Source: Myxococcota bacterium
GTDB taxonomy: Bacteria; Myxococcota_A; UBA9160; UBA4427
DNA: 64,000 nucleotides
Direction of reading: 5' to 3'
Assembly (NCBI GenBank): GCA_050618075.1
Contig: JBNLVL010000034.1
Span: 271,268 to 335,267 of the forward strand
In this document: positions 16,467 to 61,488 of the stretch, piece by piece
Layout: each line of letters opens with the position of its first letter
How positions within the stretch are numbered: the stretch's first letter is position 1
The notes under the pieces: model-generated
Seen by the model: only the letters and a program-made list of their open reading frames with translations
Database searches by the model: none
What the model was told of the DNA's origin: nothing
Made by a program: the position numbers and the translations under genes

Positions 16467-16738
16467 CCGACGCCCCCTCTGGCTCCTGGGAAAAAAGGTC
16501 CCGAAGATCGAAGGGAAGGTTGACCCCGGGGCCCCAGGCAAAATAACGTCAGGCGTCCTGGGAATCTGGAAACACTCTGGGGCTCCGCTCCAACTGCGCC
16601 CTCCTCCGAAGCGACTCCCCGAAACGTCCATCGTCGCGACGCGCTGAATCGAGGGTCGGTGAGCCGGTGTCTCCTCTGCGCGCCCGTCTGCGCTGGCCCG
16701 TCGCGGCGAGCCGGGCCTCCGTCTGATGCGAGGAACTC

Positions 16739-19700
16739 ATGTCTGAAGCGCCCGTCCACTCGGTCTCCGACTCCTGGGTCCAGAAGGTCGCGCGGTGGAT
16801 CACCGACCACCGCTACTTCGTGGCCTCGATGCTCATCCTGTCCACGCTGTTCTTCTTCTACCCCATCCTGAACGCGATGCTGACCGGGGCGGGCCTCCCG
16901 CTGCCGGGACCCACGGTCCGGGTGGACACCGAGGCCCGCGCCCAGTGGCCCGACCATCCCTTCATCCACGCCCAGGACAAGTTCGCCGGCGTCTTCGGAA
17001 CCTCCTCGCTGGTCGCGATCGCCGTGGTGGTGGAGGAAGGCACGATCTTCACCCCCGAGGTGATCGCCAAGATCGACCGCATCACGAAGCGCTTGGACGG
17101 CCTCGGCTTCGACAGCAAGACCGACGAGCGGGACGATCTGCGCTGGGAGCTCGAGGAGCAGGGCCTCGAGGGTCCGGAGATCCAGAAGATCCTCGATCGG
17201 CGCTACCCGCCCTATCCGGTCAACCACTACCAGGTGAGCTCGGTCACCCACTCCGGAACCCGGGTGATCCAGATCGAAGCCTCGGGCGACATCACGAGCA
17301 GCACGCTCATGGGCGAGGTGCCGGAGACCCAGGAGGAGGCGGACGCCTTCGGAGCGCTGGTGCGCCAGAACCCGCCCATCATCTACGGGCGCTACGTCTC
17401 CCGCGACCAGAAGGGCGCGCTCATCACCGCGGGCTTCGTGACCGACCGCCTGAGCGGCCTGGAGACCTTCCAGGCGGTCTTCGATCACGTGGACCAGATC
17501 AAGCAGGACGAAGAGACCGACAACGTCCGGATCTACGTCTCGGGCGCGCCCATCCTGGTGGGCTGGATCCTGCGCCACGCCTACCAGATCGGCTTCTTCC
17601 TGCTGCTCTCGACCTCCACCATCTTCGGCCTGCTGTGGCTGTACTTCCGCCGCTGGCACGGCGTGCTCATCCCGCTCATCGCCGCCATCGCCACGGTGAT
17701 CTGGGGCTTCGGCTTCACCGGCTGGGTCGGGATCACCTTCGACCCACTCATCCTCGTGATTCCGAGCATCATCACCGCGCGCGCCATCTCACACACGGTG
17801 CAGATGGCGGAACGCTTCTTCGAAGACTACGAGACGATGCTCCCGCAGATCGGGGACCCGGAGCAGGCCAAGATCGAGGTGGCCACGGTGGCCATGGGCG
17901 AGCTGATCGTGCCGGGCACCCTGGGCATCGTCACCGACACGGTCGGACTGCTGGTGATCCTGGTGACGTCGATCCCGCAGATGCGCGACCTGGGCATCTT
18001 CGGCGCGTTCTGGGTGGCGAGCATCATCGTCACCGTGGAGATCCTGCACCCGATCCTCATCTGCTTCATGCCCGCCCCCACGGAGCACGAGCACTTCCTG
18101 CCGAACTTCATGATCCGGTTCACGCGGGCGGTGGGCAACGTCACGACCCACCCGCGCTGGAAGTACGCGATCGCGGGCGTCACCGTGCTGCTCTTCGTCA
18201 GCTCGACCTACATCACGCTCTTCCACTCCCAGGTGGGCGAAGCGCGGCCGGGCACCCCGCTGCTCTTCCCGGACCACCCGTGGAACGAGGCGACGGCCCA
18301 GATCGCCGAGCGGTTCGGGGGCATCGACTCGTTCGTCGTGTACGCCGACGGCGACAAGAAGGACGCCGCCGGCGACGCCGCGCCGATCCTGCGGATGGAG
18401 GAGTTCGAGCGCTGGATGTCGGCGTACACGAACCTGGGCACCACGGTCTCGGTGGTGCCCATCCTCCGTACGACATGGAGGATGAACCACTACGGGGACC
18501 CGAAGTGGCTGTTCGTGCCGAACGACCAGGCCACGGTGCGCCAGCAGCTCTTCCAGCTGCGCACCAACGGTCCCCCGGGATTCCTGCGCCCGTTCATGAC
18601 CGACGACGGGCGCCACGCCAACATCTCGTTCTTCTATCCGGACCACAAGGGAGAGACGATCCTGCAGGTGGTCGCGGCGAGCCGGGAGTTCATCAAGCGC
18701 AACCCGATCGGCGAGGTGATCGTGCGCCTGGAGAAGGACCACGCCGCGCCCGACGCGCCGTTCTTCAGCTACGACTCCCTGGCGGACAAGTGGTACTACA
18801 TGCTCGGGCCGCTGCTTCCGCCCCGGAACCACACCCTCAAGGTGAGCGTGCGCACCGACGACGGGACCTACGAGACCCGCACGGTCAACATGGTGAACGG
18901 AGGGGGCGAGGCCGACCTGCCCGAGTGGATCGAGGAGTTCCGCGAGAACGCCATCTACGACTACGAGGACAAGTTCGACTCGGTCGAGGAGGGTGAGATC
19001 TTCACCTGGCCCGAGACCCTGGCGGACTGGGACACCTCCGACGTGGACGCGTGGTGGGAGGACGGGGAGCTCGGCATCCGCGCGGTGGCCGTCAACACCA
19101 AGGACCTCATCGTGGAGGACCTGAAGGCCATCGACGCCGTCCCCAGCTATCAGTCGACGAACTCCTGGACGCGCGGCGTGCAGTTCGTGATGGCCGGCGG
19201 CCTGATGGGCATCATCGCCGCCATCGACGACGAGGTCGAACGCAGCCACGTCGCCAACATCGCGCTGATCTTCCTGGTGATCTTCGTCCTCCACTCGGTC
19301 ACGTACCAGTCGGTTCCCAGCGGCGCGATCATCCTGCTGCAGATCGCGACGGCGACGATGCTCTCCCTGGCCTACATGGCCCTGGCGGGCCTGGGCCTCA
19401 ACATCAACACCCTGCCGGTGCAGTCCGTCGGCGTCGGCATCGGAGTCGACTACGCGATCTACATCGTGGATCGCATCCGTCACGAGGTGGCGGACACCGA
19501 AGACATCGACGAAGCGGTCAGACGGGCGGTGCGTACGACGGGCATGGCCGTCTCGTTCACGGCGACCACCATCGTCGGGGGCATCATCACCTGGACGGCC
19601 TCCGACCTGCGCTTCCAGGCCGAGATGGCGCGCCTGCTCTCGATCCTGATGGTCATCAACATGTTCGGAGCCATCACGGTCGTGCCGGCCTTCTACTCGA

Positions 19701-19804
19701 TCCTGCGGCCCAAGGTGGCCACGGCCCTGCTCACCGACGAGCAGCGCGAAGCCCTCCGCCTCCAGCGGGAGGCCGAGCGCCGCAAGGGCCTGCTCGACGA
19801 CTGA
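16739..19804 (+). CDS. RND-superfamily MMPL-type transporter, 1021 aa
   Basis: Two 5-6-helix TM bundles (about aa 270-470 and 800-990), each preceded by a large soluble loop. The second loop carries an acidic, Trp-rich insert. ATG with an AGGA SD. Confidence 0.85.
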   Translation: MSEAPVHSVSDSWVQKVARWITDHRYFVASMLILSTLFFFYPILNAMLTGAGLPLPGPTVRVDTEARAQWPDHPFIHAQDKFAGVFGTSSLVAIAVVVEEGTIFTPEVIAKIDRITKRLDGLGFDSKTDERDDLRWELEEQGLEGPEIQKILDRRYPPYPVNHYQVSSVTHSGTRVIQIEASGDITSSTLMGEVPETQEEADAFGALVRQNPPIIYGRYVSRDQKGALITAGFVTDRLSGLETFQAVFDHVDQIKQDEETDNVRIYVSGAPILVGWILRHAYQIGFFLLLSTSTIFGLLWLYFRRWHGVLIPLIAAIATVIWGFGFTGWVGITFDPLILVIPSIITARAISHTVQMAERFFEDYETMLPQIGDPEQAKIEVATVAMGELIVPGTLGIVTDTVGLLVILVTSIPQMRDLGIFGAFWVASIIVTVEILHPILICFMPAPTEHEHFLPNFMIRFTRAVGNVTTHPRWKYAIAGVTVLLFVSSTYITLFHSQVGEARPGTPLLFPDHPWNEATAQIAERFGGIDSFVVYADGDKKDAAGDAAPILRMEEFERWMSAYTNLGTTVSVVPILRTTWRMNHYGDPKWLFVPNDQATVRQQLFQLRTNGPPGFLRPFMTDDGRHANISFFYPDHKGETILQVVAASREFIKRNPIGEVIVRLEKDHAAPDAPFFSYDSLADKWYYMLGPLLPPRNHTLKVSVRTDDGTYETRTVNMVNGGGEADLPEWIEEFRENAIYDYEDKFDSVEEGEIFTWPETLADWDTSDVDAWWEDGELGIRAVAVNTKDLIVEDLKAIDAVPSYQSTNSWTRGVQFVMAGGLMGIIAAIDDEVERSHVANIALIFLVIFVLHSVTYQSVPSGAIILLQIATATMLSLAYMALAGLGLNINTLPVQSVGVGIGVDYAIYIVDRIRHEVADTEDIDEAVRRAVRTTGMAVSFTATTIVGGIITWTASDLRFQAEMARLLSILMVINMFGAITVVPAFYSILRPKVATALLTDEQREALRLQREAERRKGLLDD

Positions 19805-19868
19805 GCGCGGGCGGGCCGCCGCAGTCGAGTACCCGGTCTTCGCGTACGGGACGCTCGAAGCCCCCGAG

Positions 19869-20246
19869 GTGGTCGAGCTCGTGCTGGGGCGCAGGCTGCC
19901 CGGCGTGGCCGCTCGGCTCGATGACTACGCGCGTCATCGGGTTCGCGGCGAGCTGTTCCCGGCCATCGTGCCGAGGAGCGGGGCCTCGACGCCGGGGACC
20001 CTGCTGCGCACGCTCGCCCCGGACGATCTCGCGCGCCTGGACTCCTTCGAGGGCGCTCTGTATCGGCGCTCGACGGTCGAGGTGTGCCTCGATGGAGGCC
20101 ACGCCCATGGGTCTCCGGGGACCGAGAGGGCATTCACCTACGTGCTTCGGGCGCGCTACGCCGACCGCCTGAGCGATGACGCGTGGAGTCGTGCGCGGCT
20201 CCATCGGGAGTGGCTCCCGATCCTCCTCGAGCGTTGGCGAAGTTGA
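19869..20246 (+). CDS. Gamma-glutamylcyclotransferase-like (AIG2/GGCT fold) ORF with an anomalous start
   Basis: Track ORF of 125 aa starting at GTG. The conserved N-terminal strand VEYPVFAYGTLEAPE is encoded in frame upstream (19824-19868) but has no ATG/GTG/TTG before it. Confidence 0.55.
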   Translation: MVELVLGRRLPGVAARLDDYARHRVRGELFPAIVPRSGASTPGTLLRTLAPDDLARLDSFEGALYRRSTVEVCLDGGHAHGSPGTERAFTYVLRARYADRLSDDAWSRARLHREWLPILLERWRS

Positions 20247-20253
20247 ATCACCA

Positions 20254-20271
20254 CGACACTAATGAGTGTCG
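20254..20271 (+). other. Perfect hairpin CGACACT-AATG-AGTGTCG just after the GGCT-like stop
   Basis: 7-bp stem and 4-nt loop. The T run (20283-20286) begins 12 nt later, so this is not a canonical intrinsic terminator. Confidence 0.3.
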
Positions 20272-20321
20272 ATTCGAACACATTTTCCCGCGCAATGCTC
20301 GATGGACATTGGAGAATTTCG

Positions 20322-20351
20322 TTGTCCTCGATCAATGACTCGGCGTATAAC
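20322..20351 (+). promoter_or_regulatory. Sigma70-like promoter candidate TTGTCC-N18-TATAAC for the giant OMP gene
   Basis: Lies in the only AT-rich stretch upstream of 20455. An AACAA-N7-TTGTT inverted repeat (20349-20365) overlaps the -10 and predicted start. Confidence 0.3.
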
Positions 20352-20454
20352 AAGTTTCAGTTGTTGTCGTAGGGGGGGCAGCCCGCGGTCGTTCACTGGG
20401 GAGAACGGCCACGGCGATCCGCAGGGTCGGCCGCCTCGAGATGCGGGGTGATCG

Positions 20455-23400
20455 GTGAAGACGATGCGCGAGTTCGAGTGGCGGAGGCAGCGATCCGGGC
20501 GCCCGCTCTCCTCCAGCCACGAGGGACCGAATCGCTCCGGTGTCCACCGCCCGCGTGCTCGACGCTCTGGGTGGCCGTCGGTCGCATGGCTCGCGCTGCT
20601 GGGAATCGCAGCCCTGTCGGCCGCCGCTCCGGCCCGCGCCTTCGAGGCCTTCGACGGTCGTTTCCAGGCTCACGGCTTCTTCGAGTCCCAGATGCGCGCG
20701 ATCAGCGCGGACTACGCCGAGCAGTGGGACATCGTCCAGTGGTACCAGATCTTCAACCTGGAGGTGGAGCTCGACATCCTGCCCGACGGGATCGGCTTCA
20801 TCGACTCCATCTCCGGGTTCGTGCGGGCCGAGGTCCGCTACGACTGCGTCTACTCCCGCGGCTGCGGGACGATGCGCAACGTGAACACCGTGGGAGACCG
20901 CGCGAAGCGGCTTCCGCGGCGACTCGCGAACGGCCGTGAGAACGTTGCCGCCGGCGCCTTCCTGGTGGAGCCCGAAGGCGAGCGCCTGTCCAAGAACCGC
21001 GACCCGGTGCCGTTGAGCGAGGTGGCGGGATTCAAGACCGCAGCCGAGCAGGAAGGAGCGGACAACCGGCTCGGCGGCGTGAAGACCTCGTGGACCAAGA
21101 GCGTGTTCGTCCAGGGCGAGGGCTTCCAGGAGACCACGATCCAGAGCCGCTTCGACGATCCGTTCCCCTACCTCTTCGAGCGCTTCGACGACTTCCGCTT
21201 CACCCACGTCCAGCAGATCGGTGGCGGGATGAACGGCCTGCCCGTGGCGATCATGGGCCCCTGGCTGCCCAAGAACTTCATCGTGGCCAACGCCGGCCTG
21301 GCCGATCGCATCAATCCCTTCGACGACTCGCGCCAGAGCCCCGTCGTGAAGGCCGCCGCCTACAACTCCGCCTTCAAGAGCAAGTACGTGGACGAGGGCC
21401 GGACGCTGGGACGACCGGAGCGGGCGGCCTCCTTCGCGCGCACGGTGACCGGCTCGGGCGCCCTGCCCTTCCGGCCGATCCCGCCCCAGGACGAGGGCAA
21501 CTACGGCGTCAAGAACGGACGGGCCCGGGGCATCTACATCCCCAGCCGGCCGGCGCGTGAGCTGATCCAGGCCGGCAAGATCGACGACTTCACCAACGCG
21601 CTGAACTTCCGCGAGTCCGAGCGCGCCTGGAACCGGGGCGCCAGCCAGCAGGACGAGAAGGAGCTGAAGGAGGCCTACCTCGACATCGACATGTTCGACA
21701 GCCGCCTCTGGCTGCGGATCGGCAAGCAGCAGATCGTCTGGGGCAAGACCGAGCTCTTCCGCACCACGGACCAGTTCAACCCCCAGGACGTCGCGCTCGC
21801 CTCGCTTCCCAGCCTGGAGGAGTCGCGGATCGCCCTCTGGTCGGCGCGCGCGGTCTACTCGTTCTACGAGGTGGGCCCCCTGGAGGACGTGCGCCTCGAG
21901 CTCGCGGTCAACTACGACGACTACGAGTCGGCGGACTTCGGCGCCTGCGGCGAGGCGTTCACCGTCAACCTGGTCTGCCAGGGCGCCTTCGGCGCCTTCG
22001 CCCACGGACTCACGGGCATCGGCCTGCTCGGCGCGCGCACGCCCGAGGACCCCTGGAACGACCGGCGCGGGATCGAGTTCGGCGGGCGACTGGAGTGGCG
22101 CTGGGACCGGTTCTCCTTCGCCATCAGCGACTTCTACGGCTACGACGACTTCCCCTACGTCGAGCGGGTGTCGACCTTCGAGCGCAACGTCGACCCGAAG
22201 TCGGGGCGGCCGCGGATCATGGGGTCCCGCAACCCCTGCCCGCAGGGCTACGAGGACGAGTGCCTCATGCCGGGCCCGAGCAAGAGCCGCACCAAGAGCA
22301 CGGTGGTCGGCCACTACAACGACCCCGACAACCAGAAGCGGCACCGCAAGGCCTACCGCTCGAAGCCGGACTCCTACCAGAACGTGCCCAAGGTGGCCTT
22401 CAACGACCCGAACAACGCACTGCTCAACCATTCGGCGAACCAGCAGGTCTTCGCCATGATCTGCGCCACCACGATCGGCGTGGTGGACCTCGACGGCTCC
22501 GCCTGCGCACAGAACGTGTTCGGATCGGTCGCGCCCGCACTCGATCTTCCCGGGGTCAACTTCACCGTCGGCCAGGCCGCCTCCGCCATCCTGGCCGGAT
22601 CGGAGCAGGCCGCCCGCCTGATCTTCCTGCGCACCGGCTTCAACCTCGCGGACTTCCTCGTCGAGCTCAACGCGGACATCAACGACGTCGGCGCCGGTAG
22701 CAACCCCAACACCACCCGTCTGGTCCGCCAGAACAACATCGACGCGGGTGGCAACATCTCGAACAAGGACCCCGGCGGGTCGAACAAGGCCCTGCGCCTC
22801 AGCACCGAGTGCCTGGACTACAACTTCAACCCGGCCGGGATGCCCTGCGGCGGCGTGCCGGTGGGCGACCCCAGGGCAGCGGGCTCCGGCGACTTCATGC
22901 GCGAGGGCCTGGCGCTGACCCAGAAGCTGTCTCCGTACCAGGAGGCCCTCATCGGCTGCGGTCCGTTCTTCGGAACCAACTGCGACGACTCGGGCATCGA
23001 CTGGCTGAACGCCGAGTACACGTCCATGATGCAGTCGTTCGTGGGCTTCGAGGGCACGCGGGCGGGCTGGCGCACCGACAACTCGCTGCTGGGCCCCCAG
23101 CCGGGCACCATCGGATTCGTCGGGGGCCCGGTCTGCCTGTCCAACTACCTCTGGCCCGAGGGCCACAAGAATCGCAGTCGTGGGGACATCCGGCTGCCCG
23201 GGTGCCGGAGCGCCTACAAGGCCGACGGCAGCGTGAAGGACCGGCGGGCCGGGAACCCCCTGCTGCTCGTCGAGTACAACGCCGCGAAGGACGGCTGCGT
23301 GCGCTACGACCCCAACGTGCCGGGCTGCAACGATCCTTCGCTGCGGACGCTCGAGCAGCCGATCCTCAAGATGACCCAGGGCGTGTCCCAGGTGTTCGAG

Positions 23401-24339
23401 AACGAGATGGCGGCGCTCTCCTGGAACTTCATGATGCTCACCGCGTCCCAGGACGACGAGTTCAAGAAGTTCCAGAAGCAGGCCAAGAAGAAGAAGATCG
23501 CCAAGCTCGCCGATCAGGGCATCAACGTCGGCGAGTCCGACCCCAGGGTCCAGAAGGCGAGCCGGAACGAGGCGCTGAAGGCAGGGCAGTGCAGCATGGT
23601 CACGCCGCAGTACTGCGAGAACATCCAGGGCCTGCTGCGGCTGGGCGGCATCTCGCGCCCGGACGTCAAGGCCTCGGGCAACGGCACCTTCGGGCGACGG
23701 TCCTTCACCTGGCACAACGGCGGCGAGCTGGTGATCCGCGCGAACAAGCGCAACGTGCTGGGCTTCTCCTCGGACTTCGCCATCGACAGCCTCAAGTCGA
23801 ACTTCAGCATGGAGTTCACCTGGATCCCGGACAATCCGCGCTCGAACACCGAGTCGTACGACGGCCTCATCGAGGTCGACCAGTACAACCTCACGGTCTC
23901 GGCGGACCGCCCCACCTTCATCAACTTCCTGAACGCCAACCGCACGTTCTTCTTCAACACCCAGTGGTTCTTCCAGTACCTGGACGGCTACCGGAAGGGC
24001 AGCGGAGCCGGCCCCTGGAACGTGCTCATGACCTTCGCGGTCACCACGGGCTACTACCAGGACCGGCTGCTCCCCACGGTGGCGGCGGTGTACGACTTCC
24101 GCTCCGTCTCCGGCGCGGTCCTGCCCCAGGTGACCTACCGGTACAACGAGGCGTTCTCGGTCACCGTGGGCGCCAACATCTTCATGGGCAAGGCCGATCA
24201 GGTCGACATGTCGGTGAACCCGGTGGCGCTCAGCAACCGTGTCCAGGGACGGCGCACCTACAAGAACCAGGCGGAGAACGGCCTGGCCGTGTTCAGGGAC
24301 CGCGACGAGGTCTTCGTCCGGCTCCGCTACACGTTCTAG
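20455..24339 (+). CDS. Giant (1294 aa) DUF1302-like outer-membrane beta-barrel protein
   Basis: Signal peptide ...VAWLALLGIAALSAAAPARA/FEAF. Motif EAYLDIDMFDSRLWLRIGKQQIVWGKTELFRTTDQFNPQD. C-terminal beta-signal ...VFVRLRYTF. Start is GTG 20455 or ATG 20464. Confidence 0.7.
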   Translation: MKTMREFEWRRQRSGRPLSSSHEGPNRSGVHRPRARRSGWPSVAWLALLGIAALSAAAPARAFEAFDGRFQAHGFFESQMRAISADYAEQWDIVQWYQIFNLEVELDILPDGIGFIDSISGFVRAEVRYDCVYSRGCGTMRNVNTVGDRAKRLPRRLANGRENVAAGAFLVEPEGERLSKNRDPVPLSEVAGFKTAAEQEGADNRLGGVKTSWTKSVFVQGEGFQETTIQSRFDDPFPYLFERFDDFRFTHVQQIGGGMNGLPVAIMGPWLPKNFIVANAGLADRINPFDDSRQSPVVKAAAYNSAFKSKYVDEGRTLGRPERAASFARTVTGSGALPFRPIPPQDEGNYGVKNGRARGIYIPSRPARELIQAGKIDDFTNALNFRESERAWNRGASQQDEKELKEAYLDIDMFDSRLWLRIGKQQIVWGKTELFRTTDQFNPQDVALASLPSLEESRIALWSARAVYSFYEVGPLEDVRLELAVNYDDYESADFGACGEAFTVNLVCQGAFGAFAHGLTGIGLLGARTPEDPWNDRRGIEFGGRLEWRWDRFSFAISDFYGYDDFPYVERVSTFERNVDPKSGRPRIMGSRNPCPQGYEDECLMPGPSKSRTKSTVVGHYNDPDNQKRHRKAYRSKPDSYQNVPKVAFNDPNNALLNHSANQQVFAMICATTIGVVDLDGSACAQNVFGSVAPALDLPGVNFTVGQAASAILAGSEQAARLIFLRTGFNLADFLVELNADINDVGAGSNPNTTRLVRQNNIDAGGNISNKDPGGSNKALRLSTECLDYNFNPAGMPCGGVPVGDPRAAGSGDFMREGLALTQKLSPYQEALIGCGPFFGTNCDDSGIDWLNAEYTSMMQSFVGFEGTRAGWRTDNSLLGPQPGTIGFVGGPVCLSNYLWPEGHKNRSRGDIRLPGCRSAYKADGSVKDRRAGNPLLLVEYNAAKDGCVRYDPNVPGCNDPSLRTLEQPILKMTQGVSQVFENEMAALSWNFMMLTASQDDEFKKFQKQAKKKKIAKLADQGINVGESDPRVQKASRNEALKAGQCSMVTPQYCENIQGLLRLGGISRPDVKASGNGTFGRRSFTWHNGGELVIRANKRNVLGFSSDFAIDSLKSNFSMEFTWIPDNPRSNTESYDGLIEVDQYNLTVSADRPTFINFLNANRTFFFNTQWFFQYLDGYRKGSGAGPWNVLMTFAVTTGYYQDRLLPTVAAVYDFRSVSGAVLPQVTYRYNEAFSVTVGANIFMGKADQVDMSVNPVALSNRVQGRRTYKNQAENGLAVFRDRDEVFVRLRYTF

Positions 24340-24371
24340 CCGAGGCCGTCGGAGGCCGGGGGGCAGGCGGC

Positions 24372-25175
24372 GTGAAGGACATCCTCGACTACGCTGGACG
24401 AACGGTCGTGGTCTCGGGGTGTGCCACCGGCATGGGGGCTGCGGCGGCCCGCACCCTCGTGGACCTCGGCGCCGAGGTCCACGCGCTCGACGTGAAGCCC
24501 GTCGAGATCGCCGTGAAGCAGAGCCTCGCGGTCGACCTTCGCGACCGCGACTCCATCGACCAGGCGGTCTCCCGGCTGCCCGCCGCCGTCGACGTGCACT
24601 TCAACTGCGCCGGTCTCCCTGGACCTCCGTTCTCCACGCTCGACACCATGCTGGTCAACTTCGTCGGACTCCGTCACCTGACCGAGGCGGTGCTGCCGCG
24701 AGTGCCCCGGGGCGGCGCCGTCGCGAGCATCACCTCGGTGGCCGGCATGGGCTATCGCAAGAACATCGACGCCGTGAACGAGCTGCTCGCTACCCCCGAC
24801 TTCGAGTCGGGCCGGGCCTGGTGCGCCGACAACCCGGAGAAGGCCAACGGCTACCTCTTCTCCAAGCAGTGCATCATCGCGTACACCCTGCGTCGCGCCG
24901 CCGAGCTGGCCCCCGACGGCATCCGCGTGAACTGCCTGAGCCCGGCGCCGACCGATACGCCGATGATGGACGACTTCGAGAGCCAGATCGGCAAGGACTT
25001 CATGGTCGAGCACTTCCAGGCCCCCGTGGGCCGCAACGCGACCCCCGAGGAGATGGCCGAGCCCCTGGTCTTCCTGGGCAGCCGCGCGGCCCGCTTCGTG
25101 AGCGGCGTGAACCTCTTCGTCGACTTCGGCTACACGGCCGCGGTCGACGCGGGGCTGCGACCGGCGCTGCTCTGA
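24372..25175 (+). CDS. SDR oxidoreductase resembling 3alpha-hydroxysteroid dehydrogenase/carbonyl reductase (CalA/HsdA type)
   Basis: GTG 24372 inside track ORF 22809..25175. Contains VVVSGCATGMGAA, NCAGLPGP, catalytic YLFSK, and IRVNCLSPAPTDTPM. Confidence 0.85.
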   Translation: MKDILDYAGRTVVVSGCATGMGAAAARTLVDLGAEVHALDVKPVEIAVKQSLAVDLRDRDSIDQAVSRLPAAVDVHFNCAGLPGPPFSTLDTMLVNFVGLRHLTEAVLPRVPRGGAVASITSVAGMGYRKNIDAVNELLATPDFESGRAWCADNPEKANGYLFSKQCIIAYTLRRAAELAPDGIRVNCLSPAPTDTPMMDDFESQIGKDFMVEHFQAPVGRNATPEEMAEPLVFLGSRAARFVSGVNLFVDFGYTAAVDAGLRPALL

Positions 25176-25176
25176 G

Positions 25177-25545
25177 TCAGCCGTCGAGCCGTCGCAGCCG
25201 CAGGACGTTCCCCGGGCGGACCAGCGCTTCGAGCCACGCGGTCAGCACCCGAAGGCCTCGCTGAGGCCGTCCTGCCTCGAGGATCACCCGCTCGCCCGCC
25301 TCGAGGTCGACCTCCACCTCGGGCGACCGGCCCCAGTCGATCCGGACCTGCACGCGGTGGCGCCCGGGCGGAACGCAGAGCTGCGTGGTCCGGCCGAAGG
25401 CCACCGCACCGGCCTCGTGGCCGTCGACGCGGATCGAGAGGCGCCGGAGGGCTGCGATCCAGTGGCGCGTACGCCGGACCTCGATGCAGGCGAGCGGCGC
25501 GGGCTCCGGATGCCGGGCGCCGGGTGCTTCGTTCGCGGGCTTCAT
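25177..25545 (-). CDS. Hypothetical 122-aa protein, ATGA-coupled to the Rhs gene (candidate immunity/partner)
   Basis: ATG 25543-25545 overlaps the Rhs stop (TGA 25542-25544). AAGGAGGAG SD lies inside the Rhs 3' end. Beta-rich pattern RVDGHEAGAVAFGRTTQLCVPPGRHRVQVRI. Confidence 0.6.
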   Translation of the reverse strand: MKPANEAPGARHPEPAPLACIEVRRTRHWIAALRRLSIRVDGHEAGAVAFGRTTQLCVPPGRHRVQVRIDWGRSPEVEVDLEAGERVILEAGRPQRGLRVLTAWLEALVRPGNVLRLRRLDG

Positions 25546-28500
25546 GAACTCCTCCTTCGGGACCGGCTCGTCCGACGCGTGCGGGCGAGCGCGAGAACGG
25601 CGACCCACGGCGCGACCTCGAACCCCAGTCCGCAGGCGGGGCCGCCCACCTGGAGGGAATCGACTGTGCCGTCGATCACCATGTAGGCCCGGCTCGGGGC
25701 GTGCCACCGGGCCGGTCCGGGACGCCTGTAGCCTTCCACCTCTCCGGGACGGATGTCCATTCCGGCGTCGGCCGAAGGCGAAGATCCGTCGGGCCCGCCG
25801 TCCCTCGGCACGATGAGCGGGCTGAACTCTTCGATGAACTGGCCGAAGCCGACCCCCTGGCGCCCCGTCGACATCTGGTAGATGTGGTTGGCCACCGAGA
25901 AGCCCAGCAGAGAGCCAGCGGCGCTGCCCAGCGGGCCTCCGGCTTCGAAGCCGACCGCTCCGCCGAGGAGGGTCATGCCGCCGATGAAGAGGCCCCACGC
26001 GTACTGGGAGCTCGGCGTCGATGGCGCCGTGGGGCGGGCCTGACGACCGTCCGGGTCCCAGAACGAGACCGGATTGCCCTGCGTGTACGCGTACTGGTTG
26101 ACCAGCTGGTGGATCGGGTCGGGCGCCAGGAAGGCCGCCGCATCCGGATCGAGGACGCGGTGGCCGAGCACCAGCAGACGCCCGGCGCGCAGCCCGCGGG
26201 CGAAGTCGAACGGGTCTTCCTCGGAGCCCAGCTCGGCCCGCGCGCCGTAGGCGCCGTAGAGCAGGTAGCGGACCACCTTCCCGTCATCGTCCGAGACCAG
26301 GTGCACGTTGCCGCGGAAGTCGTAGTGGCGGAAGAGCCGCTCCCCGGTGCGGAGATCGGACCGAACCTCGGCGTGCTGGATGGCGCTCGGCTCGCCGTCG
26401 GCATCGGCCTCCACCCGTCCCCCGAAGCGATAGCGCACGACTTCGGCGCCGATCCGGCGCCAGAGCGGCCGCCCCGAGGTGTCCCACGCGAACTCCGTGT
26501 GCCCGCCGATCCCGCGGATGCGGCCGGCGCCGTCCCAGTCGATGGACTCGCCGTCGCGCTCCACCACGAAGCCGCCGTCGTCGTAGTTGTACGTGTGGGT
26601 CCGCTCCGCGCAGGGGGCCGGTGCATCGATCCCGAGCAGCCGATTGCGTTCGGCGTTGAAGAGCGCCGTCACCGACTCGTCCTCCTCCTCGCACGTGAAG
26701 CTGCTGCGATTGGAGAGCTGATCGTAACGGTGGAAAGTGTACTCCGCGGAGTCGGGCTCCCGGCTGAAGAGCAGCCTCCTTCCCACCGGCTCCGCGGAGG
26801 GGCCGATCTGGCCGGTCTCGAAGAGCTCCTCTGCGGGAACCGGCTGATCGCTCGCGATCAGGGCCCACGACAGGCTGCGAAGGCAGGTCCGGGCGGCGCA
26901 GATGGTTCCATCCGCGCGCTCGTAGAAGCGCTCGGCCAGCGGCCCGCCGCCCCCCACGGGTCGCAGCGACGTCTCGGTGATCTCGCCCGTGGTGGGGTCG
27001 TAGTCGGCCGTGTACTTGAGCCCGTTGGCGTAGCGGGTCCTCGTGAGCAGGCCGTCCACGTAGGTCCGATCGAGCAGGGTCTCGCCATCCTCGAGGAGCT
27101 CGACCTCACGGTCGGCGAGATCGTAGCGGCGCTCCAACGCCGTCAGCACGGAGAGCTCCGGTCGCAGGTACCGCTCGGCGACGATCCGCGAGCGCGCGTC
27201 GTAGTCGAGCCACAGCTGCTCGCCCTCCGGAAACACGATGATCGCGAGGCGCCCGGCGGCGTCGTACACACGGTGCTCGGTTCCAGGCCGAAGCGAGTCG
27301 GACAGCGCGACCAGGCGTCCGCCCTGGTAGCTCCGCACCTCGTCGGACTCCAGGACGCCGTCGCGCAGGACGGCGTGGCGCACGACGCGGCCGAGCGGAT
27401 CGTACTCCCACTCTTCACGCATCCCGTTGGGGCGCTCGATGGCCGTGGTCCGACCGGCCGTGTCCAGCTCGATGTGCGTGGTCTTCCAGGCTCCGTCGAC
27501 GCGGTCGCGCCGGGCCACGACCCGCCCCAGCGCATCGTAGTCCCACTCGCAGTCGCCCCCGAACGGACGCCGCATGCGCAGGGGGCGGCCGTCGCTGCGA
27601 TAGTCGATCTCGAGCCAGAGCGGATCGTCGGGGGAGAACGCGAACTCCTGCGCGACGAGCTCGTAGCCGATCGGGTTGCGGTCGCCGTCGTAGCGCACGC
27701 TGCGGATGCCGCCGCCGCCGTCGCGCGCCGCACCCCAGGGATCGGCTCCGGTGGTCCGGTTGCCCACCCCGTCGAACTCCAGGTCGCGCGGATCTCCGAC
27801 CAGGTCGACGGCTCGGGCGTGCCCCCGAGCGGTGTAGTCCTGGTACAGGAGGGATCCGCCGGCGACGCGGTTCACGCGGCGGAGCATCTCGTCTCCGCCG
27901 TACTCGAGGGTCGCTGACTCGCCCTCTCCGTTGCCGAGCTCGACGAGCCGGCCTACGGCGTCGTAGCGGCGGGTCTCGATGGCGCCGAGGTCGTCGTGGA
28001 TGTTCGCGATGGGCGTCGACTCCGGCGCCTCGCGGTCGACCGCGTCCCGGGCGTACTCGAAGCGCACCACGTTGCCCGACGGCTGGATCTCGCTCGTCAC
28101 GTCGTCGTTCTCGAGGGTCCAGCGAGTGACGAGGCCGTCGGCGTCCGTCCGCGAGACCGGACGCACGCCGACCCAGGTCGTGGTCTGGCGGTTGCCGAGG
28201 GGATCGACCGTCTCGCGCAGACGACCCCGGTCGTCGGAGGTGTACGACCACGCGCCCCCCAGGACATCGACGAGGTCGACCCGGTGGAGCCCGTCCACCA
28301 CGTCGCCCCAGACGATCCCCACCGTCGGATCCGTCTCCCCGACCTGGCGTGCGATCACTGGACGACCGTTCCGGTATTCGAACTCGAAGCGCTCCTCTTC
28401 GGAGGTCCGGATCGAAGCCAGCTGGCTGCCCGCGTAGGTGTAGCGGAAGCCCGGCCAGCCCTGCTCCATGTCCAGGGGATCCCGGGCCGCCTCGAGGCGT

Positions 28501-29198
28501 CCCTCTGCGTCGTAGCTGAAGCGCGCCCGACGACCCGCCCCGTCCAGCAGCCAGAGAATGCGGCCGGCTGGATCGCGATGGACCGTGACCAGGGGGTCGA
28601 GGGCGCCCCCGACGCGCTCCTGGACGATGCGTCGAAGCCGCAGCCCGGCCTCGGTGTCGCCGTACTCGAACAGCAGCCGAGGCAGCGCCGAGCTCGTCCA
28701 CCGGACCTCGGCGAGCTGACCGCTCGCGACGTCGAAGCGGTGCAGCAGACCGCCCTTGGTCTTCAATGCATTCCCGGAGACGACCACCCAGTGGGTCCCG
28801 GGGAGGGCGCCCCCGGGCGGCACCGCCGCCGCGTCGTGGCGCGCTCCCGTCGCGTCGGTGAAGACGGTCCCGTCGAAGTGCAGCTCGAAGCTCCAGCGCC
28901 AGGCCCGGTCCGCGGAGTTCCAGACGGCGCCCACGCGTTGGCGGCCGAGCTGGGAGTCGACCACGAGATCGGTGCGCTCGACGGTCAGGTTGGCCGTGGC
29001 CAGGTTGATCTCCGCCCCGGGCACCTCGACGACGGCGGCCCGCTGGTAGTCCGGAGTGCCCGCCACGGGTGTGATCGCTCCGTCTCCACATCGACTTCCC
29101 AGCAAGGTCACGGCCAACAGGGCCAGCCCGCCGGCTCGCAGCACGCCGGCTCGCAGCACGCCGAGTTCGGCGGCAGAAGTGGGTCGGTCTCCCAACAT
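25542..29198 (-). CDS. Rhs / YD-repeat protein with N-terminal signal-like segment and atypical C-terminal extension
   Basis: 1218 aa. Many YD repeats (SYDAEGRL, RYDAVGRL, DYDALGRV, EYDPLGRV, VYDAAGRL). Core-end motif NQYAYTQGNPVSFWDPDG. N-terminus ends ...GGLALLAVTLLGSRC. Confidence 0.9.
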   Translation of the reverse strand: MLGDRPTSAAELGVLRAGVLRAGGLALLAVTLLGSRCGDGAITPVAGTPDYQRAAVVEVPGAEINLATANLTVERTDLVVDSQLGRQRVGAVWNSADRAWRWSFELHFDGTVFTDATGARHDAAAVPPGGALPGTHWVVVSGNALKTKGGLLHRFDVASGQLAEVRWTSSALPRLLFEYGDTEAGLRLRRIVQERVGGALDPLVTVHRDPAGRILWLLDGAGRRARFSYDAEGRLEAARDPLDMEQGWPGFRYTYAGSQLASIRTSEEERFEFEYRNGRPVIARQVGETDPTVGIVWGDVVDGLHRVDLVDVLGGAWSYTSDDRGRLRETVDPLGNRQTTTWVGVRPVSRTDADGLVTRWTLENDDVTSEIQPSGNVVRFEYARDAVDREAPESTPIANIHDDLGAIETRRYDAVGRLVELGNGEGESATLEYGGDEMLRRVNRVAGGSLLYQDYTARGHARAVDLVGDPRDLEFDGVGNRTTGADPWGAARDGGGGIRSVRYDGDRNPIGYELVAQEFAFSPDDPLWLEIDYRSDGRPLRMRRPFGGDCEWDYDALGRVVARRDRVDGAWKTTHIELDTAGRTTAIERPNGMREEWEYDPLGRVVRHAVLRDGVLESDEVRSYQGGRLVALSDSLRPGTEHRVYDAAGRLAIIVFPEGEQLWLDYDARSRIVAERYLRPELSVLTALERRYDLADREVELLEDGETLLDRTYVDGLLTRTRYANGLKYTADYDPTTGEITETSLRPVGGGGPLAERFYERADGTICAARTCLRSLSWALIASDQPVPAEELFETGQIGPSAEPVGRRLLFSREPDSAEYTFHRYDQLSNRSSFTCEEEDESVTALFNAERNRLLGIDAPAPCAERTHTYNYDDGGFVVERDGESIDWDGAGRIRGIGGHTEFAWDTSGRPLWRRIGAEVVRYRFGGRVEADADGEPSAIQHAEVRSDLRTGERLFRHYDFRGNVHLVSDDDGKVVRYLLYGAYGARAELGSEEDPFDFARGLRAGRLLVLGHRVLDPDAAAFLAPDPIHQLVNQYAYTQGNPVSFWDPDGRQARPTAPSTPSSQYAWGLFIGGMTLLGGAVGFEAGGPLGSAAGSLLGFSVANHIYQMSTGRQGVGFGQFIEEFSPLIVPRDGGPDGSSPSADAGMDIRPGEVEGYRRPGPARWHAPSRAYMVIDGTVDSLQVGGPACGLGFEVAPWVAVLALARTRRTSRSRRRSS
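29131..29160 (-). repeat. Perfect 15-bp tandem duplication (CCGGCTCGCAGCACG x2) inside the Rhs signal region
   Basis: Read directly from the sequence. It encodes the duplicated pentapeptide in ELGVLRAGVLRAGG. Confidence 0.9.
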
Positions 29199-54620: not shown

Positions 54621-54623
54621 GCC

Positions 54624-55622
54624 GTGGCCGGTCGGCTCGCGCGCTGGCTCGGCCTCGGGGAGCAGGCCGGCCCCGGAGCGCCGGACTCCGCCATCGCCCT
54701 CGACGACGCCGACCTCGCCCGGGCCGCGCGGCTGCTCGAGGTGCGGACCCGCCGCGAGGCCACCGGGCTGTTCGCGGGCGCCTACACCACGGCGTTTCGC
54801 GGCGGCGGCATGGAGTTCCACGAGTCCCAGCCCTACGTGCCGGGCGACGACGTGCGCGCCCTCGACTGGAACGCCATGGCGCGGACCGGAGAGCCCTTCG
54901 TCAAGCGGTTCCGGGAGGAGCGCGACCAGACGCTGCTCCTGGGCCTGGACACCTCGGCCTCGATGGCGCTGGCCGCCCGGGGCGAGGCCCGCCACCGCGT
55001 CGCCGCCCACGCCGCCGCCCTGCTCGCTGCGGCGGCCGGACAGGCGGGCGACCGCGTGGGGCTCGTGACCTTCGGCGACGCCGTGCGCGAAGGGACGCCG
55101 CCGGGACGGGGAGCGAGCCATACCTGGCGCCTGATCCGCGACGCCGCCCGGGCGAGCGAGGCCCCCCGCGGCTCCACCCGCCTGGCGGCGGGCCTCGAGG
55201 CGCTCCTCGAGCGCAGCGACGCCCGCGCCGTGTGCGTGGTGCTCTCGGACTTCCGGGACTCGGCCGACCCGGACGGAGCCCGTCGAGGCGAGGGCTGGCG
55301 CGCGGCGCTCGCCGCGCTCGCGGGCCGACACGAGGTCGTGTCGATCGTGCTGTACGACCCGGGCGAAGCCGCGCTCCCGGGCGTGGGGCTCGTCCGCATG
55401 GAGGACCCGGAGAGGCCGGGCCGCGTCTGCGTGCTCGACAGCGGACGCCCGGCCGTGCGCGCCCGCTACCGGAGGGCCTGGGCCGCGCGCAGCCAGGCGC
55501 TGGAGTCGACCCTGCGCAGCCAGGGCAGCGACGTCTTGTGGATGCGAACCGACCGCGACCCGCTGCACACGCTGATGCACTACTTCCACCGCCGCGCCGC
55601 GCGCTCGGGGAGGTCGCGATGA
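54624..55622 (+). CDS. DUF58-domain protein (VWA-like, MoxR partner)
   Basis: 332 aa, GTG start 3 nt after the moxR stop. Contains YVPGDDVRALDWNAMARTGEPFVKRFREE. Confidence 0.85.
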   Translation: MAGRLARWLGLGEQAGPGAPDSAIALDDADLARAARLLEVRTRREATGLFAGAYTTAFRGGGMEFHESQPYVPGDDVRALDWNAMARTGEPFVKRFREERDQTLLLGLDTSASMALAARGEARHRVAAHAAALLAAAAGQAGDRVGLVTFGDAVREGTPPGRGASHTWRLIRDAARASEAPRGSTRLAAGLEALLERSDARAVCVVLSDFRDSADPDGARRGEGWRAALAALAGRHEVVSIVLYDPGEAALPGVGLVRMEDPERPGRVCVLDSGRPAVRARYRRAWAARSQALESTLRSQGSDVLWMRTDRDPLHTLMHYFHRRAARSGRSR

Positions 55623-56602
55623 GCCGGCCCTCCCTGCCGGCGTCCATGGCGATCGCGCTGCTGTGCGGGGCGACGGTCGCGAGCTGTCACGAGCCCACCG
55701 CTCCGCCGGTGGTGGCGACCCGGCCCGAAGCGGCGTTGTCCATCGAGCCGCCGCGGCTTCGCATCGGCGACGCCGTGGAGGTCCGGATCGCCCTGCGCAC
55801 GCCCCCCGACCATCACCTGGCCCCCTGGCAGCCCCCGGAGATCGAGGGGGCGTGGCTCCTGGACGTCGACGTGGGAGACGTCCGGCGCGAACCCGGCCAG
55901 TGGCTGCACGACCTCCGGGTCCGCCTGCGGCCGCGGGAGCTGGGAGAGCTCCGCTGGCCCGACACCCGGCTGGTCGTGGTGGACGCGGAGGATCGGGAGA
56001 TCGCGGTTCCGATCGACGGGCGCGCCTTCGAGGTGGTGGCGCCGCCTCCGGTCTTCGCCGAGCGGGACGGTCCGTTCGGCATGTTGGAGGCCGCTCCGGA
56101 GCCGGGCGGCGTGGGCTGGAGCGCGGTCGCGGCCGCAGCGGCGGCCGGCGCCCTGGCCGCCCTGGCCGGGCCGTGGGCCTGGCGGCGCTGGGCCGCGAGC
56201 CACGGCGAGCCGCCGCGACCGGACGCCGTGCGCGCCGACGACGGGCCCGACCTCTACACCTGGGCCGAGCACGAGCTCGACGCCGCGCGCGAGGCGCTCG
56301 ACCGCGAGCCCCTCGTCGCAGCCCGCCGGGCGGCGCGCACCCTGCGCGCCTTCGTGGACCGGCGCTTCCAGGCGGCGGTGCGAGCCCGCACCACGCCGGA
56401 GCTGGCGGCCGGGGACCCGCCCTTCTCCGCGCGCTCGCGCTGGCCCTGGTTCCTGCGCGTGCTGGGCGACCTCGACGACCTGCGCTTCCGGGAGCCGACC
56501 GGAGCCCGGGCCGCCAGCGATTGCGTTCGGCGCGCGGCCGCGGCCCTGGAGGAGACCCGGCGCTTCGTCGAGCAGACCCGGCCGGGCGGTCGCCGCTCGT
56601 GA
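55619..56602 (+). CDS. Hypothetical lipoprotein with BatD-like layout (periplasmic beta domain, TM, cytoplasmic helical tail)
   Basis: ATG 55619 in an ATGA overlap. Lipobox-like TVAS/C. TM segment WSAVAAAAAAGALAALAGPWAW followed by RRW. Confidence 0.6.
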   Translation: MSRPSLPASMAIALLCGATVASCHEPTAPPVVATRPEAALSIEPPRLRIGDAVEVRIALRTPPDHHLAPWQPPEIEGAWLLDVDVGDVRREPGQWLHDLRVRLRPRELGELRWPDTRLVVVDAEDREIAVPIDGRAFEVVAPPPVFAERDGPFGMLEAAPEPGGVGWSAVAAAAAAGALAALAGPWAWRRWAASHGEPPRPDAVRADDGPDLYTWAEHELDAAREALDREPLVAARRAARTLRAFVDRRFQAAVRARTTPELAAGDPPFSARSRWPWFLRVLGDLDDLRFREPTGARAASDCVRRAAAALEETRRFVEQTRPGGRRS

Positions 56603-60865: not shown

Positions 60866-61488
60866 GGTCCCGCGAGAGCGCGCCACTGCTCGGGCGTGTT
60901 CACGTTGGTGAGCTGGCGGCCGCCGGGGTCGATGGCCTCGAGGTCCGCACCCTCGAGATAGGCCGTGTCGAGCTCGTCGAGGAGGCCGCCGAGGACCCGG
61001 TCTCCGGACGCCAAACGGCGCCGCGCCGCCGCGAGCGCCGGAGCCCGGGCGTACAGGGCGCACAGGGGATGGGCGCGACCGTCGCGCCGCGGAACCACCG
61101 CCTGGGCCGGCGGGTGGGCGAAGAGCGCGAGCAGCAGCTCCGGCTCCAGCAGGGGCAGATCGACGGCGACCACCCAGACCTGCTCGCGCTGGCTCGCCTC
61201 GAGCGCAGCGACCAGCCCGCGCAGCGCGCACTCGGGACCGGGCGGGTCGGCGGTCCAGCGCATCGACGCGCCCTCGACCTGGCGGACCTCCCCCCCGACC
61301 ACCCAGACCTCGCCCGCCAGCGGCTCGAGCATGCGCACCGCACGCTCGAGGAGCGTCGTCCCGTGGCGCTCGAGGGAGGCCTTGTCGCGACCCATCCGCG
61401 AGGACCGGCCGCCCGCGAGCACCGCGGCGGACAGCGCCGCGAGCCTTCCCTCGCTCCCGCGAGCCCGATCGGGGGACGACCTCGGCAC
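60862..61488 (-). CDS. mobA: Molybdenum cofactor guanylyltransferase
   Basis: 208 aa with AAVLAGGRSSRMGRDK. It starts 4 nt after the moeA stop. Confidence 0.8.
   Translation of the reverse strand: MPRSSPDRARGSEGRLAALSAAVLAGGRSSRMGRDKASLERHGTTLLERAVRMLEPLAGEVWVVGGEVRQVEGASMRWTADPPGPECALRGLVAALEASQREQVWVVAVDLPLLEPELLLALFAHPPAQAVVPRRDGRAHPLCALYARAPALAAARRRLASGDRVLGGLLDELDTAYLEGADLEAIDPGGRQLTNVNTPEQWRALAGP

Follow-up and report, generated by a model that had tools for sequence, protein, structure and literature searches.

A Myxococcota Rhs protein with a glycine-zipper payload that ends in a sorting-signal-like domain

What becomes of the end of an Rhs protein if that end resembles a membrane hairpin with a sorting tag? 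Rhs proteins and other polymorphic toxins are usually viewed as cages that hide a soluble enzyme until delivery. The question is raised by a stretch of 64,000 nucleotides from a Myxococcota bacterium (assembly GCA_050618075.1, contig JBNLVL010000034.1, positions 271,268 to 335,267), hereafter the window, in which an intact Rhs/YD-repeat shell gene at 25542..29198 on the minus strand encodes a protein of 1218 amino acids (aa). Here the payload slot appears to hold a membrane hairpin with a sorting tag, and the envelope-sorting machinery of the producer probably handles this payload. An earlier sequence-only reading of the same DNA had offered a membrane toxin or a sorted payload as alternatives; probably both apply. 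The evidence tips, if only slightly, towards a Sec-exported Rhs protein whose payload of glycine-zipper hairpin, spacer and sorting tag is sorted to a membrane-tethered effector with a 122-aa partner.

The Rhs product is 100% identical to NCBI entry MGH0037301.1 (P0001), [quoted passage not shown], where MAG stands for metagenome-assembled genome. Its RHS/YD repeats are matched by TIGR01643 (2.7e-24, five stretches) and PF05593 (8.8e-19, seven stretches), and the RHS-associated core by TIGR03696 at residues 981-1051 (4.2e-11, 43.2 bits against a cutoff of 32.5), with the end ...FWDPDG. The core end with the aspartyl autoprotease motif RVLDPDAAAFLAPDPIHQLVNQYAYTQGNPVSFWDPDG is encoded at 26046..26159 (minus strand, as are all Rhs features below) and lies in the TIGR03696 match, which extends to residue 1051. 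Residues D1027, D1048, P1043 and G1051 are invariant among 37 members of the clade. By its sequence, the core is of the autoprotease type, with a DPxG end and two putative catalytic Asp residues, and cleavage is predicted. The N-terminus has a hydrophobic signal region ending at Cys37 (LLAVTLLGSRC, 29088..29120), a probable Sec signal with an atypical lipobox (LLGSRC); in most of the clade, this position is occupied by a canonical L-x-[GA]-C. The protein is not of the kind delivered by a type VI secretion system (T6SS), which has a PAAR/VgrG-binding N-terminus and a T6SS neighbourhood: Pfam detected no PAAR or DUF6531 domain in it, and no T6SS genes lie within the window.

Translation of the Rhs open reading frame (ORF) runs ...NQYAYTQGNPVSFWDPDG, followed by 167 residues (25545-26045) and a stop at 25542-25544. 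The sequence-only reading had described this C-terminal region (CT) correctly as an extension with a PST-rich linker, a glycine-rich block, a polar stretch and a tail at exactly 25545-25646, while its count of 166 residues is one short. The CT opens with the PST-rich linker RQARPTAPSTPSSQY (26001..26045; predicted local distance difference test score, pLDDT, <50 for CT residues 1-10), which is followed by the glycine-rich hydrophobic block (25881-26000). Six glycines stand in strict GxxxG register in GGAVGFEAGGPLGSAAGSLLG (25902-25964), and the CT contains ten GxxxG motifs compared with 4.2 +/- 1.7 in shuffled sequences (p = 0.0025). In an AlphaFold2 model based on seven sequences, CT residues 11-60 (25866..26015) form a helical hairpin with helices 11-36 and 38-60 (pLDDT 74-86), each arm being of bilayer-spanning length. 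Both the GxxxG excess and the modelled hairpin confirm the glycine zipper proposed earlier. As modelled, the CT would have tandem GxxxG motifs on membrane-length helices, as glycine-zipper depolarising toxins do. The remainder of the model comprises a short helix (67-74), a disordered segment (75-144, pLDDT <50) and a terminal helix (144-164, pLDDT 55-64), so the payload consists of three modules: the hairpin, a disordered spacer of ~65-70 residues and a C-terminal tag.

Between hairpin and tag, a motif NHIYQ..TG.QG.G..F.E.F.PL[IY][VI]P (25806..25889) is common to four close CT relatives. This region is also weakly similar to CTs with another tail, as in locus L016 (31% identity over 70 aa, E 8e-4). 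The disordered polar linker follows at 25647..25805 and includes GPARWHAP (25695-25718). A motif of the form GP[AR]RWH[GA]P is also present in P0002, P0121, P0005, P0032, P0068/L058 and L057, among them Rhs CTs that are otherwise unrelated (P0005, P0032, P0068), and could be a recognition or cleavage site. The whole tail, GGPACGLGFEVAPWVAVLALARTRRTSRSRRRSS (25545-25646), contains the signature C-G-L-G-F-E with Cys1189 (25617..25634), the hydrophobic segment VAPWVAVLALA (25584..25616; Kyte-Doolittle 1.6-1.8, within the AlphaFold2 helix at CT 144-164) and, at the extreme C-terminus, the Arg cluster RTRRTSRSRRRSS (25545..25583), whose final codons also supply the ribosome-binding site for the gene that follows. 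Signature and hydrophobic segment together constitute a membrane helix of ~17 residues.

No nuclease, deaminase or ADP-ribosyltransferase family of Pfam or NCBIfam matches the CT, in agreement with the sequence-only reading, which had recognised no such motif. The only family match is to the C19orf12 glycine zipper and is sub-threshold (E 0.017). A PDB sequence search with the CT returned no relative, and a word-indexed homologue search with the CT alone returned no match, though an exhaustive HMMER search of 1.84e9 representative proteins found three, all Rhs C-termini: the CT itself, P0121 (58%) and P0122 (40%). The payload would most likely be a membrane-depolarising effector.

Evidence on what the tail is comes from proteins that are not Rhs proteins. 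The residues C, G, L, G and E of the signature are invariant across 11 Rhs tails, those of the window and of ten clade members with the same ending, which is termed class B below. A profile of these 11 tails, searched among 5.8 billion proteins, retrieved 72 short proteins or fragments (P0124-P0195) with unrelated upstream sequences, all of which contain CGLGFE, a helix and RRR, nearly always at the extreme C-terminus. The shared module reads [AP]-C-G-L-G-F-E-[LVAI], then ~11 hydrophobic residues (often ..LPPLMWL), then RRRR; variants have CGIGFE or CGLGYE. Passengers of the non-Rhs clients include FG-GAP/VCBS-like, acidic double-disulfide repeat and dockerin-like sequences, among others, and the clients come from soil and sediment metagenomes and Myxococcota MAGs. 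In an independent test, a hidden Markov model (HMM) was built from 71 non-Rhs tails only (consensus TAPACGLGFELALLLPPLMWLRRRRR) and run on 12,281 six-frame ORFs. It matches the tail of the window Rhs protein with 35.4 bits (E 4e-9, residues 1202-1232 of the stop-to-stop ORF) and those of Rhs homologues with 38.9, 30.9 and 17.5 bits, while ORFs without the motif score 11.6 bits or less. Two non-Rhs ORFs in locus L012 (19132-19923 and 21029-21226) are matched as well.

A metagenome scan yielded 79 loci (L091-L169) with 58 tail-bearing ORFs, in which the match typically ends 0-4 residues before the stop. Complete client ORFs of at least 300 aa reach lengths of up to 1268 aa, and a crude hydrophobicity test recognises a clear signal peptide in at least 14 of the 24 complete clients. 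Two clients share a contig in L092, L112 and L137, and L012 has two tails; the window itself holds one CGLGFE client only. Very short CGLGFE ORFs (61-95 aa) also occur in the middle of contigs (L087 6001-6288, L088 6001-6186, L090 5366-5623), one of them 1 nt after a DAPG-hydrolase-like gene. Gene remnants, clients with a frameshift or small peptides with a tag are possible explanations.

The attributes of tripartite sorting signals were taken from Haft (10.1101/2023.06.07.544157, sect. 5). The CGLGFE tail is located at the extreme C-terminus and has at least three near-invariant signature residues, a hydrophobic helix and a basic cluster (attributes 3-5). Most of its complete clients have N-terminal signal peptides, and the window Rhs protein has a signal-like N-terminus (attribute 6). 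The clients are unrelated to one another, and Rhs homologues end in C[SA]P-type or GGFGGF-type tails instead (attributes 7-8). For several clients per genome (attribute 2), the examples are the two-client contigs outside the window. Judged by these sequence features, the tail is a tripartite sorting-signal-type domain of an uncatalogued class, common to unrelated secreted proteins. The suggestion of the sequence-only reading that the tail resembles a sorting signal is thereby borne out, since the domain is found on many proteins without other similarity, and a signal peptide is present in most of those that are complete. The string CGLGFE does not occur in any of the 8 million papers searched.

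A tail that is rich in Arg at the end of a gene in DNA of 72% GC calls for caution. It could be chance low-complexity sequence, shaped by the overlapping ribosome-binding site or read in the wrong frame, given that the final codons do encode the downstream Shine-Dalgarno sequence and that Arg-rich read-through tails are common among high-GC six-frame ORFs. This explanation is effectively refuted. GC at the third codon position is 0.75-0.93 in the Rhs frame through the CT to the stop, which backs the frame and indicates that the 167-residue extension is translated and is not a high-GC shadow ORF. Furthermore, the tail is kept in four other homologues with 40-58% CT identity, the independent HMM matches it at E 4e-9, and the Arg cluster already begins 13 residues from the stop, well ahead of where the ribosome-binding site lies.

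The tail is one of several endings in a clade of similar proteins. A search with the full protein found ~68 relatives of 1150-1250 residues with 34-61% identity, mostly from Myxococcota MAGs, and a genome scan added ~60 loci. In about 100 relatives, a signal peptide, in most cases with a lipobox, goes together with a hydrophobic payload and, as a rule, a Cys/helix/Arg tail. Nearly all members follow one plan, namely signal peptide, Rhs shell, hydrophobic Gly/Ala-rich block, low-complexity spacer and one of three endings. In class A, that of the majority, a short spacer separates C-[SA]-P from a Leu-rich helix, which is followed by RRRR. Class B, C-G-L-(x)-G-[FIV]-E with ~11 hydrophobic residues and an Arg cluster, is that of the window and ten others. 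Class C is Gly-rich, with GGFGG[FLW] or GGL.L and without the Cys/helix/Arg tail (L007, L008, L016, L018, L027, L029; P0018, P0019). It is reminiscent of an outer-membrane beta-signal, and the genes downstream of class C members encode proteins with 1-3 predicted transmembrane (TM) helices. Weak relatives of the front half of the window CT (FYWG..., IYQ..., PL.V.P) have the class C ending (P0018, P0019, L016, L029; pairwise E 8e-4), from which it follows that the endings behave as exchangeable modules.

Which enzyme would act on such a tail? In the myxosortase model, an Lgt-like enzyme lipidates the Cys, whereupon a CPBP intramembrane protease cuts distal to it (PMC11980579). This paradigm is the best analogy for the CGLGFE tail because of the invariant Cys abutting the helix, and the processing step proposed for the tail rests on this analogy. 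Further support comes from the sister class. The Rhs genes of class A loci are flanked, in varying order, by genes for a divergent LGT-family protein (PF01790, 43 bits) and a CPBP/Rce1-like protease (PF02517, 59-74 bits). Also part of this cassette are "M327", a polytopic membrane protein of ~327 aa that is unannotated, and, in four loci, an ATGA-coupled rhomboid (PF01694). The class A CPBPs reach their highest NCBIfam scores with MrtJ and MrtS, but these stay far under the cutoffs, and no Mrt cutoff is reached. The cassette is found in L004 (14157-16698), L012 (8421-9880 and 13366-14270), L015, L055, L013, L019, L022, L023, L031, L035, L042, L047, L048, L056 and L068. At least one cassette gene adjoins the Rhs gene in 20 of 32 class A loci and in none of 14 class B and C loci (Fisher's exact p = 5e-5, loci counted without phylogenetic correction). 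An Lgt-like protein and a CPBP are the enzyme pair proposed for Cys-type sorting signals (PMC11980579), and the class A cassette looks like an undescribed dedicated Cys-tag sorting system. The pattern indicates that Rhs tails of this clade are probably handled by sorting-type machinery and that something else serves the class B tail of the window. In NCBIfam 20.0, Pfam and the literature searched, the CGLGFE tag, a sorting tag on an Rhs payload and the Lgt-like/CPBP cassette beside Rhs genes all appear to be new.

Common to eight class B loci are the Rhs gene itself, an enoyl-CoA hydratase gene and, in four distant loci, an upstream ORF; nothing else is shared. In the window, genes for an enoyl-CoA hydratase and an acyl-CoA ligase lie upstream of the Rhs gene. 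A CPBP gene in L001, 5 kb from a class B Rhs gene and apparently unlinked to it, was considered as the cognate enzyme and rejected, as it has no counterpart in the other class B loci. PEP-CTERM proteins are encoded on the same contigs as CGLGFE clients or clade Rhs proteins (L112 2695-4956, L038 8683-9906, L003 111-785), in L112 following a CGLGFE tail without a change of frame. Several C-terminal sorting systems, an exosortase system among them, thus operate side by side in these lineages.

A further element of the locus is the gene directly downstream, which encodes the 122-aa protein (25177-25545, minus strand) and is translationally coupled to the Rhs gene. Stop and start overlap as ATGA (25542-25545), and the Shine-Dalgarno sequence GAAGGAGGAG (25549..25558) lies within the last Rhs codons (..SRRRSS*). 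Thus, the codons TCC CGA AGG AGG AGT TCA TGA contain both a strong ribosome-binding site and the ATGA, an arrangement that the sequence-only reading had missed, and the GC peak at the third codon position shifts to the frame of the new gene. Homologues of the 122-aa protein (46-57% identity) are encoded directly downstream, with an overlap of 4-11 nt at the Rhs stop, in 5/5 loci with this CT type; none was found in the other loci searched, which have other CT types. Those are followed by different coupled genes, mostly for small proteins with 1-4 TM helices. Such covariation between CT type and downstream gene is a signature of polymorphic toxin/immunity pairs, and a variable CT followed by a cognate small gene is what characterises Rhs containers. 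Nine loci with different payload types share a downstream family of ~145-160 aa described as "2 TM + PH-like" (L022 13457-13933, L028 13399-13875, L030, L031 10310-10771, L034 13345-13776, L038, L060, L068, L081), a possible immunity or accessory family of broad range.

The 122-aa protein has no Pfam or NCBIfam match, TM helix or signal peptide. Its single-sequence AlphaFold2 model is a small beta-sandwich (pLDDT 64), for which Foldseek returned no PDB match at E <= 1e-3 and only generic beta-sandwiches, the best at E 5e-3. It is a candidate for an immunity or accessory factor. Since membrane toxins that act from outside do not typically have a partner that is soluble and cytoplasmic, it might equally well be a holdase or accessory protein. 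Two further ORFs on the minus strand are not genes as they stand: one of 273 aa (25177-25998) is real only from the ATG at 25545, and that at 24336-25013 was rejected as an antisense shadow ORF of the convergent gene for a short-chain dehydrogenase. The latter gene (plus strand, ~24360-25175) and the 122-aa gene end within 2 nt of each other (25175-25177), leaving no room for a terminator.

In the mechanism that we infer, the Rhs protein would be exported by Sec, probably as a lipoprotein-type protein. After export, the terminal helix would serve as a stop-transfer anchor, with the Arg cluster in the cytoplasm and Cys1189 at the periplasmic face of the membrane. The Rhs aspartyl protease would cleave after WDPDG, and a genome-encoded intramembrane sorting enzyme would remove the helix and the Arg segment at or near the Cys, probably after its lipidation. 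If MYXO-CTERM and related signals are taken as a guide, a CPBP-type protease acting on a lipidated Cys would be the leading candidate for this enzyme. The predicted product is a glycine-zipper peptide that is lipidated or tethered to the membrane and stays associated with the Rhs shell; it would most likely depolarise membranes, and the 122-aa protein would be its cognate immunity or accessory factor.

Several observations weigh against this mechanism. The window tail is matched by no NCBIfam or Pfam sorting model, even at E <= 10, and the MYXO-CTERM, GlyGly-CTERM and PEP-CTERM models that the sequence-only reading had put forward for a search are among those without a match; the models run include MYXO-CTERM (TIGR03901, TIGR03382), GC_trans_RRR, GlyGly-CTERM, PEP-CTERM (PF07589, TIGR02595), JDVT-CTERM, NF033191 and TIGR04564. 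Nine other clade tails and ten non-Rhs tails are likewise matched by no curated sorting model. With MYXO-CTERM, no clade tail scores above 8.1 bits (cutoff 15.85), and other CTERM models yield sub-threshold noise only (CoaP_CTERM 17.5 bits, cutoff 35; Heimdall-CTERM 14.8 bits, cutoff 24). Unlike MYXO-CTERM, the window tail has an invariant Glu within its hydrophobic segment, and other CGLGFE clients often have Pro-Pro there, where MYXO-CTERM is characteristically without Glu or Pro. Neither Pfam scans of ~45 window genes, which returned housekeeping functions only, nor local HMMs of the CPBP, LGT-like and M327 families revealed a CPBP, Lgt paralogue, exosortase, rhomboid/rhombosortase or sortase within the window, and the cognate sortase that the sequence-only reading had suggested looking for is thus absent from this stretch. 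Among 130 genes that lie up to 6 kb from other CGLGFE clients (58 ORFs), a Pfam census showed no enriched enzyme; four of the 130 encode PEP-CTERM proteins. The cassette described above accompanies the other tail class and occurs in 0/8 class B loci. Moreover, the hydrophobicity of the hairpin is moderate (Kyte-Doolittle 1.4-1.8), and a partner without TM helix or signal peptide is unusual as immunity to a membrane toxin that acts in the periplasm. Lastly, solved Rhs cages enclose the whole payload (PMC10684867), which conflicts with a C-terminus held in the membrane. This conflict would be eased if the tail were removed early, or if the spacer threaded out of the shell like teneurin C-terminal domains. 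Failure to find an enzyme near the clients is what a one-to-many sorting system would lead one to expect. The sequence-only reading had named two results, no matching sorting model and no sortase, among those that would speak against sorting. Both were obtained, in the case of the sortase for the window, but that rule is too narrow, as the tail signal belongs to an uncatalogued class.

The same negative results, namely the absence of a sortase-like gene nearby and of any match to curated sorting models, favour a simpler explanation, in which the 167 residues are a three-helix membrane-inserting toxin whose Arg cluster serves for orientation, with neither cleavage nor lipidation. The AlphaFold2 model does contain three helices, and Tse5 (PMC9637101) provides a precedent for a pore-forming toxin of this kind. 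Nevertheless, an unsorted toxin is unlikely, as the same terminal module is present on dozens of proteins that have unrelated passengers and share nothing else. In addition, the module is interchangeable, with weak front-half relatives ending in GGFGGF, and a generic TM helix leaves the invariant C-G-L-G-x-E unexplained.

The chief rival concerns the purpose of the payload. The CT may be an anchor, not a weapon: a non-toxic membrane attachment, consisting of the hairpin and the tail helix or of a lipidated Cys, that tethers a teneurin-like Rhs shell to the envelope of the producer. The clade would then comprise proteins of the surface or periplasm with a structural, adhesion or receptor function, with the 122-aa protein as an assembly factor. 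Such a role would suit the uniformity of the clade, in which nearly every member has the same architecture and diverse enzymatic toxin folds are missing, as well as the position of the loci among housekeeping genes, without signs of T6SS, mobile elements or orphan toxins. Sorting signals are normally found on surface-anchored proteins (PMC11980579), the Pfam TEN_YD-shell is listed for all clade members, and the soluble, beta-sandwich-like 122-aa protein is not a typical membrane immunity protein. However, with its invariant autoprotease residues the shell would be cut from its own anchor. Between members, the CTs are hypervariable but the cores 35-60% identical, a small, tightly coupled downstream gene is specific to each CT type, and glycine-zipper hairpins are typically used by depolarising toxins. 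On balance, an anchor is a serious but doubtful alternative to the sorted, membrane-tethered effector.

The sorted effector can be extended to a wider proposal, which is put forward tentatively and is more daring than probable. CGLGFE-CTERM would be an unrecognised sorting system of uncultured Myxococcota, and the lipoprotein Rhs proteins of this clade would put Cys-type tags on encapsulated payloads that are freed as lipidated membrane toxins. If this is true, the payloads would be C-terminally lipidated and lipopeptide-like, and might for example be passed to neighbours via the outer membrane. The C[SA]P tag would be served by a dedicated cassette of three or four genes, comprising an Lgt paralogue, a new CPBP subfamily, a polytopic protein and sometimes a rhomboid, and the class A Lgt paralogue would be a candidate for the acyltransferase that the myxosortase model still lacks. 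Irrespective of this proposal, the class A cassette, with its Lgt paralogue and CPBP beside a Cys-tagged client, is a testable candidate for the open "Lgt-like acyltransferase" step of that model. The CGLGFE tag is present on many secreted proteins and absent from NCBIfam 20.0 and Pfam, and phylogenetic profiling could therefore use it to trace a new sorting enzyme. Sorting of the payload would constitute a route outside the T6SS, Tc and WapA paradigms.

The rest of the window includes a gene for an MMPL/RND-type transporter (1025 aa), followed by one for a 1294-aa DUF1302 outer-membrane protein (16727-24339), a pair that fits a diderm cell envelope. The region 54621-61000 has 78% GC and many overlapping long ORFs on both strands, resulting in ambiguous gene boundaries; a Bat-like operon (DUF58, VWA, TPR, BatD) is recognisable there.

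Membrane-active Rhs payloads are already known, as are YD-shell toxins of Myxococcota that are Sec/signal peptidase II (SPII) lipoproteins and have a hydrophobic, periplasm-active C-terminal domain (CTD). The Pseudomonas aeruginosa protein Tse5 (PA2684) is a pore-forming toxin encapsulated in an Rhs shell (PMC9637101, PMC10684867). Like the window protein, it combines this shell and its aspartyl autoprotease, on the C-terminal side, with a payload of ~150 residues that is hydrophobic and helical; that of Tse5 inserts into membranes and depolarises cells. It differs as a cytoplasmic, PAAR/VgrG-linked T6SS effector without a signal peptide or a C-terminal sorting signal. Its immunity protein Tsi5 is membrane-bound, unlike the 122-aa protein, and exhaustive HMMER detected no sequence similarity between Tse5 and the window CT. 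Closer in export are the bacterial teneurin-like proteins (TLPs), for instance BiTLP (Nat Commun 2026, PMC13018210), which are Sec-exported YD-shell toxin containers and predicted SPII lipoproteins in Myxococcota. They have autoproteolytic sites, co-expressed immunity genes and a hydrophobic, TM-containing CTD acting from the periplasmic side; that of BiTLP permeabilises membranes and is toxic only when directed to the periplasm (PMC13018210). TLPs differ in their superfold of FN-plug, NHL and YD-shell with ~2000 or more residues, for which the window protein with its 1218 aa is too short. Pfam detects RHS repeats only in the latter, PF25023 (TEN_YD-shell) being a faint precomputed match, and a C-terminal sorting signal has not been described for TLPs. 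SitA toxins of Myxococcus, transferred by outer-membrane exchange (PMC5562445), are polymorphic Myxococcota toxins with a lipoprotein signal, downstream immunity genes and independence from T6SS; they differ in having no Rhs shell, nuclease toxins and no C-terminal sorting tag. The sequence-only reading had supposed that neither a membrane-inserting nor a sorted payload was described for Rhs proteins. Tse5 and the BiTLP CTD overturn the first part, while no description of a sorted Rhs payload was found in the literature searched.

Among sorting signals, the tail shares its tripartite layout and its place at the extreme C-terminus with MYXO-CTERM/myxosortase (MrtX, MrtC, MrtP), JDVT-CTERM/MrtJ, Synerg-CTERM/MrtS and CGP-CTERM/MrtA. 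As in the Cys-type signals of this group, an invariant Cys abuts the helix without a spacer, followed by the hydrophobic helix and the Arg cluster. MYXO-CTERM is also found in Myxococcota, on signal-peptide proteins with unrelated passenger domains, but its signature is GCGC, compared with C-G-L-G-F-E in the window tail, and an Rhs payload has not been reported as a client of MYXO-CTERM or the sibling Cys-type signals. PEP-CTERM/exosortase signals resemble the tail in having a Glu in the signature directly before the helix, together with an Arg cluster. They differ from it in that the window tail has an invariant Cys and ~11 hydrophobic residues after the Glu, in contrast to ~18 after PEP. From this comparison, the CGLGFE tail is rated as a new class of Cys-type tripartite sorting signal on a new kind of client.

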